From Oscillospiraceae bacterium (GTDB lineage: Bacteria > Bacillota > Clostridia > Oscillospirales > CAG-272): a stretch of 64,000 nt of DNA. Of this stretch, positions 2,933-53,696 are shown in pieces. A program made the position numbers and the translations under genes. The stretch spans positions 129,445-193,444 of the forward strand of contig SVRK01000004.1 in assembly GCA_015064855.1 (NCBI GenBank), given 5' to 3'. The notes beneath the pieces are model-generated. The model saw nothing but the letters and a program-made list of their open reading frames with translations. It had not been told where the DNA came from and did not search any database. Positions within the stretch are counted from its first letter, which is position 1. Each line of letters begins with the position of its first letter.

Positions 2933-4810
2933 ATGTCAAATATTGTTGACGTTTGTGTTGTTGGCGCAGGCCATGCCGGAATTGAGGCAGCTTTAGCCTC
3001 TGCCAGAATGGGAATGAACACAATTTTATTTACAATGTCGCTCGACGCTGTTGCAAATTTGCCGTGCAACCCATCCATTGGCGGTACTGCCAAGGGACAT
3101 CTCGTTTATGAAATTGATGCCTTGGGTGGTGAAATGGGAAGAAGTGCCGATTTAGTTACTCTGCAAACAAGAACACTAAATCTCGGTAAGGGCGCAGCGG
3201 TTTACTCAAAGAGAATTCAGGCTGACCGATTAAAATATCGCTCAATTATGAAGGGTGTGCTCGAAAATACTCCTAATTTAAGACTTGTTCAAGCGGAGAT
3301 TTGTGATATAAAAACAGTAACTGAAAACGGCGAAAAGAGAGTTGATGCAGTAATTACCCGCTTAGGCGAGGAATTTAAATGCAAGGCTGTCATCCTTTGC
3401 ACAGGAACCTATCTTAACGCAACCGTACATACAGGCGATATTTGTTATCATTCAGGACCTGACTCGCTTATGCACGCTTCTTTTTTGACCGATGCACTCG
3501 TGCGCGAGGGCATTTCAATGATGCGCTTTAAAACGGGAACTCCTGCAAGAATCCACGCCGATTCCATTGACTATTCACAGCTTGAAATTCAAGAGGGAGA
3601 GGAAATAGCCTTCCCATTCTCTTGGAAAACAAGTGAAGAGGACTACCCTATTAAGAAGCAAGTTCCTTGCTATATTGCCTACACAAATCTTGACACACAT
3701 AAAATTATCAAGGACAACCTAAAAAAGAGCGCTATGTACTCCGGTAATATACATGGCACAGGTCCAAGATATTGCCCATCTATTGAAGATAAAATAGTGC
3801 GCTTTGCCGACAAGGAAAGACACCAGCTCTTCCTTGAGCCGACGGGTGCTGACACAAAGGAAATGTATCTTCAAGGCTTTTCAACCTCTATGCCAATTGA
3901 GGTGCAAATGAAGATGCTCAAATCCTTAAAGGGCTTTGAAAATGCAAGGGTTATGCGCTATGCATATGCAATAGAGTATGATTGCACCGACCCACAGGAG
4001 CTTTTAGCCACACTTGAATATAAAAAGATTTCAGGTCTTTATGGTGCGGGACAGTTTAACGGAACGTCAGGATATGAGGAGGCGGGCGCACAGGGACTTG
4101 TTGCAGGAATTAATGCATCTTTAAAAATCAAGGGTCAAAAGCCTATGATTTTGGAGCGTTCTTCCTCTTATATTGGTACCTTGATTGACGACCTTGTAAC
4201 AAAGGGAACGAAAGAGCCCTATCGTATGATGACCTCAAGGAGCGAATATCGCTTGCTTCTTCGTCAGGATAATGCCGATTTACGCTTAACCCCTATCGGT
4301 CGCGAGGTTGGACTAGTAAATGACGAGCAATGGGCACATTTTGAAAAGCGCAGAAACCAAATAAGTGACGAAAAGAACCGTCTTTCAAAGGTTACAATTT
4401 ATCCAACTGACGAGGTAAATAAGATAATAGAGGATGCAGGAACAACTCCTATTTCAACCCCTATTTCTCTTGCCGAGCTTATAAAAAGACCACAATTAAG
4501 CTACGAAATGTTTGAAAAATTAGACACAGGTAGGCCTAATTTGCCAAAAAATGTAGTTTTTACTGCACAAACAGACATAAAATACGATGGCTACGTTAAA
4601 AAACAGCTTTCAGAAATTGCACGAATACAAAAGCTTGAATCAAAGCCTCTTGACCCCAATCTTGATTATTCTATAGTTAAAGGACTCAGAATTGAGGCGA
4701 TGCAAAAATTAAACAAGGTTAAACCTCTAACCCTTGGACAGGCATCTCGAATTTCCGGAGTTTCTCCTGCAGATATTTCTGTGCTTATGATTTTTTTATC
4801 AGCAAAATAA
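2933..4810 (+). CDS. mnmG: tRNA uridine-5-carboxymethylaminomethyl modification enzyme MnmG (GidA)
   Basis: An AAAGGAG RBS (2921-2927) precedes the ATG at 2933. The FAD motif [12 protein letters not shown] and the motif [13 protein letters not shown] are present. Confidence 0.95.
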
Positions 4811-41479: not shown

Positions 41480-41528
41480 TAGCCTCCTTTGTAAAGGGAG
41501 GTGTCGCCATAGGCGACGGAGGGATTTT
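41480..41528. repeat. Left compound inverted repeat of DUF559 cassette 2
   Basis: TAGCCTCCTTTGTAAAGGGAGGT, then the hairpin GTCGCCATAGGCGAC, then GGAGGGATTTT. It starts one base after the pyrF stop, and its inner end supplies the GGAGG RBS of the DUF559 gene. Confidence 0.9.
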
Positions 41529-41530
41529 GT

Positions 41531-41899
41531 ATGAAATATAATCATAACAAAAATATTGTTCCGTTAGCTAAAGAGCTAAGGAAAAATATGACCTCTGAAG
41601 AAAAGCACCTATGGTATGATTTTTTAAGAAAGTATCCTATAAGGTTTTCAAGACAAAAGGTTATAGGAAATTATATAGTAGATTTTTATTGTGCAAAGGC
41701 TAATTTGGTAATAGAGCTTGACGGTTCACATCACGGACTTGAAAAGGAAACTGAAAAGGACGAAAAAAGAACCGAATATATTGAGTCGCTTGGGCTTACG
41801 GTGATAAGAATACCAAACTATGAAATAAAGGACAACTTTTTATATGTTTGCCGTTATATAGATAGCTTGGTGGAAAAATCCCTCCGTCAGCAAAGCTGA
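41531..41899 (+). CDS. DUF559 (Vsr/restriction-endonuclease-like) domain protein
   Basis: 122 aa with LRKNMTSEEKHLWYDFLR...RQKVIGNYIVDFYC...IELDGSHH. It is a paralog of 1935..2303. Confidence 0.85.
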   Translation: MKYNHNKNIVPLAKELRKNMTSEEKHLWYDFLRKYPIRFSRQKVIGNYIVDFYCAKANLVIELDGSHHGLEKETEKDEKRTEYIESLGLTVIRIPNYEIKDNFLYVCRYIDSLVEKSLRQQS

Positions 41900-41922
41900 C
41901 ACCTCCCTTTACAAAGGAGGCT
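41875..41922. repeat. Right compound inverted repeat of DUF559 cassette 2
   Basis: AAAATCCCTCC, then the hairpin GTCAGCAAAGCTGAC, then ACCTCCCTTTACAAAGGAGGCT. It overlaps the last 8 codons and the stop of the DUF559 gene. Confidence 0.9.
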
Positions 41923-41957
41923 TCTGTTTGCAAAAGAGCCTTGAAAAGGAGTTAGAA

Positions 41958-48047: not shown

Positions 48048-48141
48048 ATAACGAAAACCACGCGATGGTCGCGTGGTTCAAAAGAGGTTAACCGATGATG
48101 GAAAAGTAAACAAGAGAAAGAGGCAAGATATATTTTTAGAA

Positions 48142-48359
48142 AGGCTCCTTTGAAAAGGGAGCTGTCAGCTTTGCTGACTGAGGGATTATCTCTTAAAATT
48201 CAACTATATTGAAAGGCAAAATGTAAGGAGTAGAATATAGTTTATATAAATAAATCCCTCCGTCTGCCTATGGCGGTCCCCCCCTCTTAGCGAGGCGCAA
48301 CCCTTTTGTCGCGTTGCGACATTTCCCCTCACAGGGGAATCTCCCTTTACAAAGGAGGC
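48142..48359. repeat. Gene-less cassette with the same compound inverted-repeat ends as DUF559 cassette 2
   Basis: The left end is at 48142-48187 (GGCTCCTTTGAAAAGGGAGC, GTCAGCTTTGCTGAC, TGAGGGATT), followed by a 64-bp AT-rich core. The right end AAATCCCTCCGTCTGCCTATGGCGG is at 48252-48276, followed by an inserted module. CTCCCTTTACAAAGGAGGC lies at 48341-48359. Confidence 0.8.
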
Positions 48360-50176: not shown

Positions 50177-50341
50177 AAATACCACCTTGTTCGATGTTTT
50201 CTATGTTAATATTACCACATTTTGGGCGATAGGTCAACAAAAATTACTTTACTTTGATAATATTATATGCTACAATGGAAATAGTCAAGATGTAAACATC
50301 TTGAAAAATTTATCAGCCCTTTGGGGTGTCAAGGAGAAAAT

Positions 50342-51961
50342 ATGAAAATCAGAATTCCCGACTACGTCTCTTTAATTCACGATGAGAAGGACGAATTTTA
50401 TAACGACGAATTAAATTCCGTTTTGAAAAACGAAAACACAGAGGTTTCATTTAAGGAAAATGGAGACTACTTAACGGTATATGCAACTACCTATAACAAG
50501 GGCGCAAAATACGTAATGCTCCGTTGGAATTACGATGCGCGCAAGGACGTTAAGGTTCTTGGCGATGCCTACGAGCGCGGATATGGAGATTTGCAGTGGC
50601 AAACAATACGCCCTGAAAGAATGATGCCTTGGTATATAGCGGTATCTAACGGAAGCGATATGGATTTTGATTACTCGAAAAGACTTACCGAGTGCTTTGG
50701 CGTTATGGTTCAGCCAAATGCATTTGCCACATGGCAATACGACACGAAGGGCGTTACCCTTTGGCTTGATATAAGAAACGGCGGTAACGGCACACAGCTA
50801 GGCGGTAGACTTCTTGAATGCGCAACGGTTGTGTTTAAGGAATATGAAAGGGTTAGCGCATACAAGGCAGTAAAAGATTTTTGCCGTGCGCTCTCGCCTA
50901 ACCCGTATTTGCCAAGTCATAAGGTTTATGGCTCGAACAACTGGTATTACGCATATGGAAAAAGCTCTCACGAGGAGATTGTTGCGGATACAAAATTAGT
51001 TGCCAAGATGTGCAACGGACTTGAGAATATCCCCTATATGGTAATTGACGACGGATGGCAACCAAACCCAACCGACGCGCCCTGGGACATAGGAAACGAG
51101 CGCTTCCCTAATATGAAGAAGCTTGCGGACGAGATGCGTGCGCTCGGCACACGACCGGGTATTTGGGTGCGCTACCTTGTAAACGGCAAGGACAACGAGC
51201 CTCGCAAGATAGAAAAGCCCGAGGAGTGGTATCTTGAAAGAAACAAAAAGGTGTTTGACCCTTCCCACCCAGAGGTACTTAATTACGTTGCCGAAATCAC
51301 CGAGACTCTAACTAAAAAATGGGGCTATGAATTAATCAAGCACGACTTTTCCACCTTTGATATTTTCGGTTGGTGGGGCTTTGATATGCAACACACCGTT
51401 ACTTATGGCGGTTGGTCATTCTACGATAAGACAAAGACAAGCGCAGAGATTGTTAAAAACTTTTATAGGGTTGTAAAGGACCACGCAAACGGTGCAGTTA
51501 TTATCGGCTGCAACTGTGTTGGACATCTTTGTGCGGGACTACATCAGTTAAACCGCACAGGTGATGACACAAGTGGCTTTGAATGGTCAAGAACAGCCAA
51601 GATGGGTGTAAATACGCTCGCATTTAGAAACGCGCAAAACGGCTCGTTCTTTATGGCTGATGCCGACTGCGTTGGAATTACAGGCGCAATTTCTTGGGAG
51701 CAAAACAGAGAATGGCTTATGGCTCTTTCTCGTAGTGGCTCACCGCTATTTGTTTCCTGTAAGCCGGGTGTATTAAACGACGAGGAATTAAACGAGCTAC
51801 GCGAGGCTTATATAGTTGCATCATATCAAGCGGACGAATTTATTCCGCTTGACTGGATGGAAACAACAACACCTGAAAAATATTTATTAAACGGAAAAGA
51901 AATAACGTTTAATTGGTACACAAAGCGCGGAAACGAAAGCTTTCTTGATATAGCAAGATAA
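50342..51961 (+). CDS. Clan GH-D (GH36/GH27-like) alpha-galactosidase-like hydrolase
   Basis: VIDDGWQ, FPNMKKLADEMRALG and LIKHDFS are present. An AAGGAG RBS precedes the ATG at 50342. Confidence 0.55.
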   Translation: MKIRIPDYVSLIHDEKDEFYNDELNSVLKNENTEVSFKENGDYLTVYATTYNKGAKYVMLRWNYDARKDVKVLGDAYERGYGDLQWQTIRPERMMPWYIAVSNGSDMDFDYSKRLTECFGVMVQPNAFATWQYDTKGVTLWLDIRNGGNGTQLGGRLLECATVVFKEYERVSAYKAVKDFCRALSPNPYLPSHKVYGSNNWYYAYGKSSHEEIVADTKLVAKMCNGLENIPYMVIDDGWQPNPTDAPWDIGNERFPNMKKLADEMRALGTRPGIWVRYLVNGKDNEPRKIEKPEEWYLERNKKVFDPSHPEVLNYVAEITETLTKKWGYELIKHDFSTFDIFGWWGFDMQHTVTYGGWSFYDKTKTSAEIVKNFYRVVKDHANGAVIIGCNCVGHLCAGLHQLNRTGDDTSGFEWSRTAKMGVNTLAFRNAQNGSFFMADADCVGITGAISWEQNREWLMALSRSGSPLFVSCKPGVLNDEELNELREAYIVASYQADEFIPLDWMETTTPEKYLLNGKEITFNWYTKRGNESFLDIAR

Positions 51962-51974
51962 AGAGGGAGTAACT

Positions 51975-52067
51975 ATGTTAATTAAAAAGAACCCCGTTTT
52001 AACCGGATTTCATCCCGACCCTAAAAGGCTCCTTTGTGCAAAGGGAGCTGTCAGCTGTGCTGACTGA
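51975..52067 (+). other. Relic 5' end of a GH43 gene (16 codons) reading into a repeat and stopping
   Basis: A GAGGGAG RBS precedes the ATG at 51975. MLIKKNPVLTGFHPDP mirrors the start of the live gene at 52092. The frame then enters the palindromic repeat and reaches TGA at 52065-52067. Confidence 0.7.
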
Positions 52068-52073
52068 GGGATT
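52027..52073. repeat. Solo left-type compound repeat end
   Basis: GGCTCCTTTGTGCAAAGGGAGC, GTCAGCTGTGCTGAC, TGAGGGATT. The architecture is the same as 41480-41528 and 48142-48187. Confidence 0.88.
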
Positions 52074-52091
52074 GAGAAAAAAGGAGAAATT

Positions 52092-53696
52092 ATGTTAGTT
52101 AGAAAAAATCCTGTTTTGACAGGCTTTCATCCCGACCCTTCTATTTTGGCGGTGGGCGATGACTATTACCTTGCGACCTCAACCTTTCAATGGTTCGGGG
52201 GAGTAGAATTATACCATTCAAGGGATATGGTAAACTGGGAGCAGCTACCTTGTCCACTTACAAGAACCTCACAGCTTGATATGCAGGCAAATCCGAATTC
52301 AGGCGGAATATGGGCGCCGTGCCTATCATACTCGGACGGAGTTTTTTACCTAATTTACACAAACGTGAAAAACTTCCACGGTATTTTTAAGGATACACAT
52401 AATTATCTTGTTACCACAACCGATTTGTACGGCGAGTGGAGTGAGCCGATTTATTTGAACTCCAGTGGCTTTGACCCGTCGCTTTTCCACGATGACGACG
52501 GCAAAAAATATCTTGTCAATATGCGTTGGGACCACAGAATGGAGCACCACGATTTTGCAGGAATTTTAATGCAAGAATATGACCCGAAGGCGAAAAAACT
52601 GGTTGGCGAAATCAAGACAATATATAAGGGCACGGAAATAGGCGGTACGGAAGCACCGCATCTATACAAAAAAGACGGCTATTACTATTTGATGGTTGCC
52701 GAGGGTGGCACAATGTATAACCACGGTGTGCGCTTGGCTCGCTCAAAAAACATTTGGGGCGAGTATGAAAGTGACCCACAGCCACTTTTAACAACAAGAA
52801 ATAATCCCGAAAAATATATTCAAAGAACAGGGCACGCTTCGTACATAGAGGCATCAAACGGTCAAGGCTACGTTGCTTACCTTGGCGCTCGACCATTGCG
52901 CGAGAAAAAGCTCGTTGCCTTTGCAGAGGGATGCTCGATTTTAGGTCGTGAAACCTGTATTGCCCCTGTAAAGTGGGAAAACGGATGGTTACGCCTTGAA
53001 AACGGCGGAGAAGTTCCACCCGAGGAGTATTTTTCGACGCTTGACGAGGTAAAATTTCCACCAAAGCCCGAAAAAGACGTATTTGACGGTGAAAAACTAC
53101 CACTTCAATATAAAACGTTAAGATTGCCGCTTGACAGAATGGGAACCTTAAATGAGAGAAAGGGATACCTACGCCTTTACGGTATGGAGGCAATTACCTC
53201 TCCAAACGAGCAAAGCTTGGTTGCAAGAAGGCTTGACGCTTTTTCTGTTGAAGCAACGACGGAGCTTGAGTTTTGTCCAAAAACGTTCCAAGAAATGGCA
53301 GGACTTACCGTTTTTTATGATACCTATAATTTCTTCTATCTCTATATGTCACACGATGAGGAAAGCGGTGAAAACTGCCTAAGAGTTTTGGTGCGTGACA
53401 GCCTAAAATTTTACAACCCTATAAAAGAATATAGAGTTTTGATAGGAAAAACGGAAAAGGTATGGCTACGCGCTCAGGTCGAGAGATTGAATTTAGAGTT
53501 TTTCTATTCACTTGACGGAGAGAATTATATGCCGATTGGCGGAAGGCTTGACTGCTCCAATTTATCTGACGAGGCGTATGGCTTAATAGGTCACGAGGGA
53601 CACACGGGCACGTTTATCGGTATGTGCTGTCAAGACCTGACAGGGTTAAGAAATTACGCAGATTTTAGAAGCTTTGAATATAAGGTGAAAAAGTAA
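52092..53696 (+). CDS. GH43 beta-xylosidase / alpha-L-arabinofuranosidase
   Basis: NPVLTGFHPDPSILAVGDDYYLATSTF, WAPCLSY and EAPHLYKKDGYYYL are present, followed by a C-terminal beta-sandwich. Confidence 0.88.
   Translation: MLVRKNPVLTGFHPDPSILAVGDDYYLATSTFQWFGGVELYHSRDMVNWEQLPCPLTRTSQLDMQANPNSGGIWAPCLSYSDGVFYLIYTNVKNFHGIFKDTHNYLVTTTDLYGEWSEPIYLNSSGFDPSLFHDDDGKKYLVNMRWDHRMEHHDFAGILMQEYDPKAKKLVGEIKTIYKGTEIGGTEAPHLYKKDGYYYLMVAEGGTMYNHGVRLARSKNIWGEYESDPQPLLTTRNNPEKYIQRTGHASYIEASNGQGYVAYLGARPLREKKLVAFAEGCSILGRETCIAPVKWENGWLRLENGGEVPPEEYFSTLDEVKFPPKPEKDVFDGEKLPLQYKTLRLPLDRMGTLNERKGYLRLYGMEAITSPNEQSLVARRLDAFSVEATTELEFCPKTFQEMAGLTVFYDTYNFFYLYMSHDEESGENCLRVLVRDSLKFYNPIKEYRVLIGKTEKVWLRAQVERLNLEFFYSLDGENYMPIGGRLDCSNLSDEAYGLIGHEGHTGTFIGMCCQDLTGLRNYADFRSFEYKVKK

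Follow-up and report, generated by a model that had tools for sequence, protein, structure and literature searches.

A duplicated GH43 gene start in a gut Clostridia genome, probably one arm of a long target duplication made by a short triplex-type repeat

The start of a GH43 gene in a metagenome-assembled genome of the gut Clostridia is present twice, on either side of a short two-hairpin repeat, and the additional copy is probably one arm of an old, long target duplication that arose upon insertion of this triplex-type repeat. This reading builds on the duplication itself, on the membership of the repeat in a dispersed element family, on the recurrence of the same architecture at many other loci, on an empty orthologous site elsewhere, and on a strain in which the element has been deleted together with one arm. 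The window, i.e., the whole stretch of 64,000 nucleotides that was analysed, is part of contig C6 of a draft genome (2.02 Mb, 38 contigs, metagenome-assembled, 96% complete), which is labelled G000 in the following. The relatives used for comparison are metagenome-assembled genomes (MAGs) of uncultured Clostridia/Eubacteriales from the hindgut of ruminants (goat, sheep, and deer). The following features of the window are of relevance:

41481–41923, strand not assigned: DUF559 nuclease cassette between inverted copies of the same element family, without flank repeat; candidate partner enzyme
48141–48187, plus strand: solo copy of the same element family, without detectable flank repeat
50321–51961, plus strand: upstream operon gene from the list of open reading frames, weakly Melibiase/GH36-like, with its TAA stop at 51959–51961
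51957–52022, plus strand: left arm of the target duplication (the "relic"), with RBS GAGGGAG, ATG at 51975, and GH43 codons 1–16
51975–52067, plus strand: predicted relic ORF of 30 codons, comprising 16 GH43 codons and continuing through the element to the TGA at 52065–52067
52023–52073, plus strand: inserted repeat, consisting of 0–4 nt of filler (AAAA) and the core; the element can also be bounded at 52027–52073
52074–52139, plus strand: right arm of the target duplication, with the live RBS AAGGAG and codons 1–16
52092–53696, plus strand: live GH43 gene of the beta-xylosidase/arabinofuranosidase type, 534 aa

In a repeat search of the window, positions 51957–52022 and 52074–52139 were found to form a direct repeat of 66 nt (53/66 identical; 80%), which spans the RBS and codons 1–16 of the GH43 gene and brackets a two-hairpin repeat of about 50 nt of the BoxC/PIT/"intrastrand triplex" kind. 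By direct reading, 51975–52022 translates to MLIKKNPVLTGFHPDP and 52092–52139 to MLVRKNPVLTGFHPDP. The two 16-codon copies differ at eight sites, six of which are synonymous, while the remaining two are the conservative replacements I3V and K4R. The original prediction of a doubled start, each copy with its own RBS, and its count of differences are thus borne out, with the repeat being longer than the 16 codons initially described. It had also been stated correctly that the upstream copy runs into the repeat and terminates (after 30 aa) and that the downstream copy continues into the full gene, the 534-aa product of which carries GH43 (Pfam, E 8e-93) and GH43_C2 domains; with 13/66 differences between the arms, the duplication is, as suspected, not a fresh one. 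A GH36-like nature had been assigned to the upstream gene; this comes from a match to Pfam PF02065 (Melibiase) with an E-value of 1e-4, which lies under the curated cut-off, and should be read as a weak likeness. The GH43 gene was found in 24/24 genomes of the genus sampled, and its synteny with the upstream gene extends over 11 species. Local alignment of flank against flank at the GH43 site yielded a score of 67, compared with a 99th percentile of 37 when 1,500 sites were drawn at random from this genome, the upper tail of this null distribution being itself made up of true repeats.

Iterated nhmmer searches retrieved about 48 matches of the element family on both strands of the 2.0-Mb genome. 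The family consensus reads AG[G/C]CTCCTTTG, loop, CAAAGGGAG[C/G]TGTC, hairpin 2, GAC[T/G]GAGGGATT. Accordingly arranged, the core at the GH43 site has a pyrimidine block followed by hairpin 1, the trinucleotide TGT, and a hairpin 2 of variable sequence, with the third purine block running to GAGGGATT at its end; folded as DNA, it gives −10.4 kcal/mol (z −2.8), with the first hairpin being predicted. The sequence of the hairpin-2 stem varies between copies, with pairing kept, and the limits of the insert are sharp and constant, the core ending in ...GGGATTG. As in the three-block organisation of triplex repeats, the blocks CTCCTTTG, CAAAGGGAG, and GAGGGA occur in every copy. At one triad position the three blocks co-vary (C-G-G in 43 and G-C-T in 27 copies, with two exceptions; 72 copies from six genomes), so that the triad conservation of BoxC/PIT/TM repeats is found here in the form of covariation at one position. 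Also in keeping with these repeats, the copies are many, dispersed, mainly intergenic, and present in both orientations. An exact hairpin-1 pattern was matched 47 times in five relatives, versus 0 times for a reversed control pattern. From these characteristics we infer that the family follows the BoxC/PIT/"intrastrand triplex" design, the covariation being what suggests a triplex fold. The family has a subfamily structure with young, near-identical copies; Rfam contains no family matching at the GH43-start locus.

Judged from sequence comparison, the duplication is a property of the element and not of the GH43 gene, a general rule that was not found in the searchable literature. In the genome under study, 6 of the 48 element matches lie above the 99th percentile of the flank-similarity null, and direct repeats of 20–66 nt are found at seven sites. 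The inspected repeats, of 44, 25, 36, 23, 51, and 20 nt, represent the 3′ ends, stop codons included, of five other genes:

Contig C17, two insertions: repeats of 44 nt (42/44 identical) and, older, 25 nt
Contig C4: repeat of 36 nt (36/36)
Contig C32: repeat of 23 nt (23/23)
Contig C9: repeat of 51 nt (about 70%)
Contig C22: repeat of 20 nt (18/20)

On C17, two different elements are stacked among three copies of one gene end, which indicates two separate insertions; the same pair of elements is also present in the relative G016 (locus L128). For five sister species, exact hairpin-1 pattern matches were counted, 35 of 47 having both flanks available; among these, 23/35 are abutted by direct repeats of 27–93 nt that lie above the null, with filler of 0–11 nt on the 5′ side and 0–43 nt on the 3′ side of the element. 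In most of these flank repeats, a long ORF has its stop codon; a few hold a gene start, and three are intergenic. Another species carries an 83-nt repeat (82/83) around an element copy at the 3′ end of the GH43 orthologue. At some copies the arms are identical (36/36, 23/23, 39/39, and 53/53), so that fresh events do exist. Tandem arrays of arm and element also occur, with a period of 99–122 nt and near-identical elements; they look like the result of later amplification by unequal exchange. Copies without a flank repeat, comprising 12/35 in the relatives and most copies in this genome, may be old or may stem from a second insertion mode.

Each locus has flank repeats of its own, which match the gene found there. 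Single-copy orthologous sites complete this picture at two loci. At the GH43 start, G064, G006, and G012 possess a single start and lack the element; other repeats, without a relic, are located there in G016, G004, G010, and G053; and the full arrangement of relic, element, and live start is present in four species, namely G000, G017, G001, and G014. At the gene end on C4 (...FKIEK stop), G006 has a single copy followed by a terminator, without an element, while an element is common to G000, G016, and G017, with the full 36-nt duplication in G000 and G016 and a truncated second arm in G017; G012 carries an element of a different subfamily with its own repeat of about 25 nt. Locus-specific flank repeats together with an orthologous empty site holding one copy indicate that the spare gene end was made from the target at insertion. 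This bears on one of the originally proposed explanations, an element that carries a spare 5′ gene end: insertion does spare the target, but the spare end appears to be copied from the target and not borne by the element. In each relic-bearing species, the context of the relic RBS matches that of the live start of a relative without the element, which places the relic at the original position of the gene start.

The draft genome is metagenome-assembled and in 38 contigs, and in relatives these elements are frequent sites of contig breaks; an assembly that is chimeric or collapsed at the repeat thus had to be considered, and had been named from the outset as a possible source of error. The probability of such an artefact is negligible. 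An assembler cannot make up the 13 sites at which the arms differ, and the same arrangement is present in the assemblies of three other species. Moreover, contigs from independent gut metagenomes were compared over positions 51500–52600; in X9, one contig bridges 51995–52145 with 0 differences, and in X7 and X8 the element is reached by contigs from either flank, so that the suspicion of an assembly error is refuted by three independent assemblies. A scan of metagenome contigs with the GH43 N-terminus yielded no further syntenic loci and no extra strains, and a scan of genome contigs returned the same species representatives only.

A further metagenome, X12, provided a different allele from the same species. 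Its contig (4.9 kb, depth 24.7, 99.6% identical upstream) joins 51992 directly to 52110, skipping 117 nt, which is the exact period of the repeat. Left of the joint the sequence is relic-like (9/13 differing sites), and right of it live-like (4/13). One crossover between the arms accounts for this chimera, whereas to regard X12 as the ancestral empty site would need nine changes on the left in the live arm and four on the right in the relic. On this sequence evidence, the X12 strain is one in which the element and one arm have been precisely deleted, leaving a single chimeric relic/live start, and its GH43 gene, as read from the contig, begins with the relic RBS and the first six relic codons. 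The contig thereby documents, at the level of sequence, that the two arms at the GH43 site recombine with each other, and arm-to-arm exchange explains the low overall divergence between relic and live copy.

The pattern of differences between the arms had been taken to mean that both copies evolved as coding sequence in separate lineages. Such a history is not required. By hand count over the four relic-bearing species, relic–live differences at codon positions 1, 2, and 3 amount to 7, 5, and 18, a third-position bias which would fit a constrained live copy next to a neutral relic. In this genome, both non-synonymous differences are assigned to the live branch, since the relic keeps the I-K state that is common in relatives.

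The third-position bias can also be claimed for a recombination or replacement junction, in which the relic is the native start, and the element together with the live start was imported from another lineage. Such an import would agree with the match between the relic RBS context and the live start of other species, as well as with a local history that conflicts with the rpoB tree; G004 and G016, which are not sisters, share an upstream repeat, so recombination between species does occur. Spread of a ready-made arrangement could, in addition, explain the near-identical junction in four species. We nevertheless consider an import quite improbable, since it leaves the origin of the duplication as well as the locus-specific flank repeats at dozens of other copies unexplained. 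In G001, the arms are identical at 58/62 positions, including a lineage-specific RBS region and Gln5, which is unexpected for a foreign import. Sliding-window divergence between G000 and six relatives revealed no clear imported tract around the element, and in the comparison with G017 no low-divergence import tract is seen there. Of the originally suggested recombination or replacement junction, recombination does act, given that X12 lacks exactly 117 nt, while replacement is the less favoured account of how the duplication arose.

With a target duplication as the preferred reading, the distribution of the arrangement among species can be considered. G000 and G017 share element stems, filler, and the live RBS region, which identifies the same event in both. 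In all four relic-bearing species, the left junction lies within 0–4 nt of one position, which favours one origin. In the rpoB tree, three relic-bearing species could be placed (G017 has no rpoB), each as sister to a species without the relic, and the elements at the GH43 site differ between species, in the hairpin-2 stems in G001 and in subtype in G014; a single origin, hence, needs several losses and element turnover. Synonymous sites between these species are saturated (pS 0.67–0.74), yet relic and live copies differ at 4/62 positions in G001, 7/57 in G014, 13/66 in G000, and about 13/59 in G017 (6–22%), which calls for either recent exchange or recent events. We infer, with fair but not strong confidence, that there was a single insertion, after which the arms exchanged sequence, the element turned over, and loss occurred repeatedly; a hot spot that was hit more than once is the less probable course, albeit one to be reckoned with.

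In all four species, the relic has kept its RBS, its ATG, and an open frame through codon 16. This raises the question of whether selection retains it as a leader ORF, on which ribosomes would unfold both hairpins and terminate 24 nt ahead of the live ATG, thereby re-coupling GH43 translation to the upstream gene. In G000 and G017, the ORF ends past both hairpins; the predicted RNA fold pairs the relic tail with the live RBS region; and the X12 allele, which has GH43 on the relic start, implies that this start is usable. On the other hand, the stop is not conserved, being located inside hairpin 1 in G014 and inside hairpin 2 in G001; amino-acid conservation would be unnecessary for such a role; and arm-to-arm exchange explains the conservation without a function. 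Selection for a leader ORF is, hence, regarded as highly doubtful.

For the target duplication, we propose the following course of events, in which the staggered breaks are deduced from the products. A family member of about 47 nt would have entered at the 5′ edge of the GH43 gene, where the target had been opened by a break in each strand. One break would lie some 18 nt before the ATG and the other, in the opposite strand, behind codon 16, with a distance of about 66 bp between them. Filling of the two single-stranded gaps would then leave a copy of the intervening stretch on either side of the insert. Of these, the downstream copy would stay joined to the gene body, leaving the enzyme intact, and the upstream copy would remain as a by-product, a stump of 16 codons whose frame continues into the repeat. 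Subsequently, the arms would have diverged to 53/66 identity and would still recombine, with the outcome of either precise element deletion or arm homogenisation, due to which the relic would keep looking like coding sequence. Long and variable duplications, a sharp insert, and small fillers are what is expected from gap filling after opposite-strand breaks 20–93 bp apart.

Long duplications of varied length (20–93 nt) and variable junction filler can also be produced by replicative template switching of the MMBIR/FoSTeS type, which needs no enzyme of its own. A stalled fork would copy a folded element and return behind its point of departure, resulting in an insert plus a duplication. Related triplex motifs have reportedly given rise to genomic instability, and R-type triplexes to polymerase arrest (PMC4666352), and no transposase was found. 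Still, such switching, although a live alternative, appears unlikely, considering that the fillers match the flanks of no extant copy, that the insert boundaries are sharp and constant, and that the family shows subfamilies with young, near-identical copies and an association with DUF559 genes. The fillers of three events in this genome match no other sequence in the genome, the flanks of extant copies included; for this reason, transduction of donor flanks is likewise unsupported.

Concerning the enzymatic machinery, the genome (96% complete) contains no DDE_Tnp_1 (IS4/IS1634-type DDE transposase), no reverse transcriptase, and no Cas1, and only three borderline Y1_Tnp matches, none of which was linked to the element family. 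An IS1634-derived MITE, reverse-transcription-based insertion, and Cas1-type integration were, thus, rejected as routes. The only candidate enzyme seen is the DUF559 Vsr-like nuclease, whose genes are element-flanked. There are three DUF559 genes in the genome, each adjoining elements of the superfamily, one of them at C6:171005–171304; neither of the two complete DUF559 cassettes in the window has a flank repeat.

Several known systems duplicate gene ends or spread as small structured units. In CRISPR spacer integration by Cas1-Cas2 and in casposon insertion, strand transfers tens of bp apart followed by gap filling duplicate the intervening stretch. The tandem arm–element arrays described here resemble the geometry of CRISPR arrays; unlike in CRISPR, it is the insert that stays constant, while the duplicated unit is local target sequence that varies in length; moreover, the inserts are near-identical, the arrays look like secondary amplification, and Cas1 is absent from the genome. 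Integrative elements in tRNA or protein genes leave, at attL/attR, a partial gene end beside an intact one, and the target is not inactivated. The GH43 site is similar in having a displaced partial end beside an intact one and in sparing the target; in contrast to att-type elements, which bring the spare end along and need an integrase and a fixed site, the flank repeats described here were self-copied at each locus and the insert measures 47 nt. REPs (REP/BIME-RAYT) make no target duplication, and the duplications left by small MITEs (Correia, RUP, and ERIC, for example) are short and fixed in length. The family shares with them the small size, the structured nature, the multi-copy occurrence at gene boundaries, and the ability to join coding or regulatory sequence. 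Criteria of classical MITEs or transposons do not apply, as the element ends (AAGGCTCC... and ...GAGGGATTG) do not form an inverted repeat, the duplications are variable (20–93 nt), and DDE_Tnp_1 is lacking.

Long and variable direct repeats, of 8–514 bp, have been described for IS1634/IS1549, without a model for their formation (PMC2266710). In this respect, the IS1634 family (IS1549 of M. smegmatis, IS1634 of M. mycoides) and the element are alike; members of the IS1634 family are kilobase-sized and possess a DDE transposase and terminal inverted repeats, whereas the insert at the GH43 site comprises 47 nt without terminal inverted repeats, in a genome without such a transposase. The closest resemblance in design is to the BoxC/PIT/TM (TMECO) intrastrand-triplex repeats (Holder et al. 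2015, PMC4666352), for which a triplex fold has been demonstrated in the case of the E. coli TMECO. Both are short, G/C-rich, dispersed, and mostly intergenic; both combine a pyrimidine block with two purine blocks, of which one is complementary and the other a mirror, and have loops that vary and stems that are kept; and both are linked to local genomic instability, without a known transposase or a demonstrated function. What distinguishes the present family is that most young copies have direct target repeats of 20–93 bp, often a gene end, while in the text of Holder et al. neither "duplication" nor "direct repeat" occurs. The sequences are not alignable by eye with E. coli BoxC. None of the 21 BoxC elements in E. 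coli K-12 had flank repeats that exceeded the null; the flank-duplication behaviour is, thus, not general for the BoxC/triplex class, and the claim is not extended to the class as a whole. In the same strain, the 3′ end of ycjD is duplicated together with the adjacent BoxC arm. The literature on DUF559 in connection with repeats, or on long target duplications, contained no description of such behaviour in the part that was searched.

The following broader interpretation is put forward tentatively, at somewhat less than even odds. The BoxC/triplex-type repeats of gut Clostridia may be active mobile DNA with an undescribed integration route, in which a folded unit of about 47 nt is placed between opposite-strand nicks 20–93 bp apart, possibly by a DUF559 Vsr-like nuclease. 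If so, every insertion would build a spare copy of its target, enabling the element to land across gene boundaries without killing genes, and insertions would seed unstable arm–element–arm structures that are prone to array expansion or precise excision.

To our knowledge, BoxC/PIT/triplex repeats have been known for about 30 years without a mechanism of spread or a partner enzyme. A consistent footprint, comprising long variable duplications, sharp boundaries, and small fillers, narrows the conceivable mechanisms to staggered breaks or template switching. Flank duplication, furthermore, offers a computational signature for dating insertions and for finding active subfamilies, as well as a read-out for assays of DUF559 nucleases. 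With regard to annotation, it accounts for a class of short "orphan" ORFs and of pseudo gene ends that lie next to repeats in MAGs of Clostridia, and also for contig breaks at these repeats. In evolutionary terms, it describes how mobile DNA can settle in compact operons without doing harm, by means of an element that is exactly removable, leaving chimeric gene ends as in the X12 strain.

Successive insertion into a single gene end is indicated at G000:C17:50110-50342 in the genome carrying the window (locus L091), where two different elements of the ~47-nt BoxC/PIT/triplex-type repeat, one of the C-G-G and one of the G-C-T type by their co-varying triad, are stacked; the terminal 8-15 codons of a minus-strand gene, together with its stop, occur there three times, and the elements lie between these copies, which points to two such events. 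The stacked pair is common to two species, the orthologue being L128 in the related genome G016. A further gene end was as follows:

G000:C4:223843-223981, gene 3' end encoding ...GSTFWFEFKIEK, with orthologues L095-L103

Here, two element subfamilies have inserted independently, producing new short C-terminal tails on the encoded protein, and in several species a DUF559 (nuclease family) cassette lies directly downstream.

Tandem arrays of the element together with its arm, i.e., one copy of the flanking direct repeat, are found in G016, G064, G004 and G017 (L130, L136, L137, L114, L112 and L111); they repeat every 99-122 nt, and their elements are nearly identical. Since several of these arrays sit at contig ends, the true arrays may be longer than assembled and may themselves have caused the assembly breaks.

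In E. coli K-12, ~60 nt are duplicated downstream of the DUF559 gene ycjD (L222; 3299-3359 versus 3404-3465), the unit comprising a BoxC arm and the ycjD 3' end; the two copies align with a score of 62, where the null reached at most 34, and flank repeats are absent at the other 21 BoxC copies of this genome. Three borderline matches to Y1_Tnp (IS200/IS605 or RAYT-like) were obtained in G000:

G000:C9:14800-15048, borderline Y1_Tnp match
G000:C6:121031-121408, borderline Y1_Tnp match
G000:C36:3077-3457, borderline Y1_Tnp match

One of these is separated by ~450 nt from the element copy C9:14325-14370.

At the GH43 gene of the window, the predicted RNA fold of 51950-52110 pairs codons 11-14 of the relic, the spare start upstream of the element, with the ribosome-binding site (RBS) region of the live copy; the live copy has identical complementarity toward its own RBS, and the predicted pairing may be due to chance. 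Among the relatives, the space between the upstream Melibiase-like gene and GH43 is filled in G053 (L035) by a different tandem array of ~40-nt AT-rich units (aattggctaacgccatgaattg...). Upstream of GH43, G004 and G016 have in common a type-A repeat and an RBS region that is almost the same in both; in the rpoB tree, however, the two are not sisters, and local exchange between species is likely.
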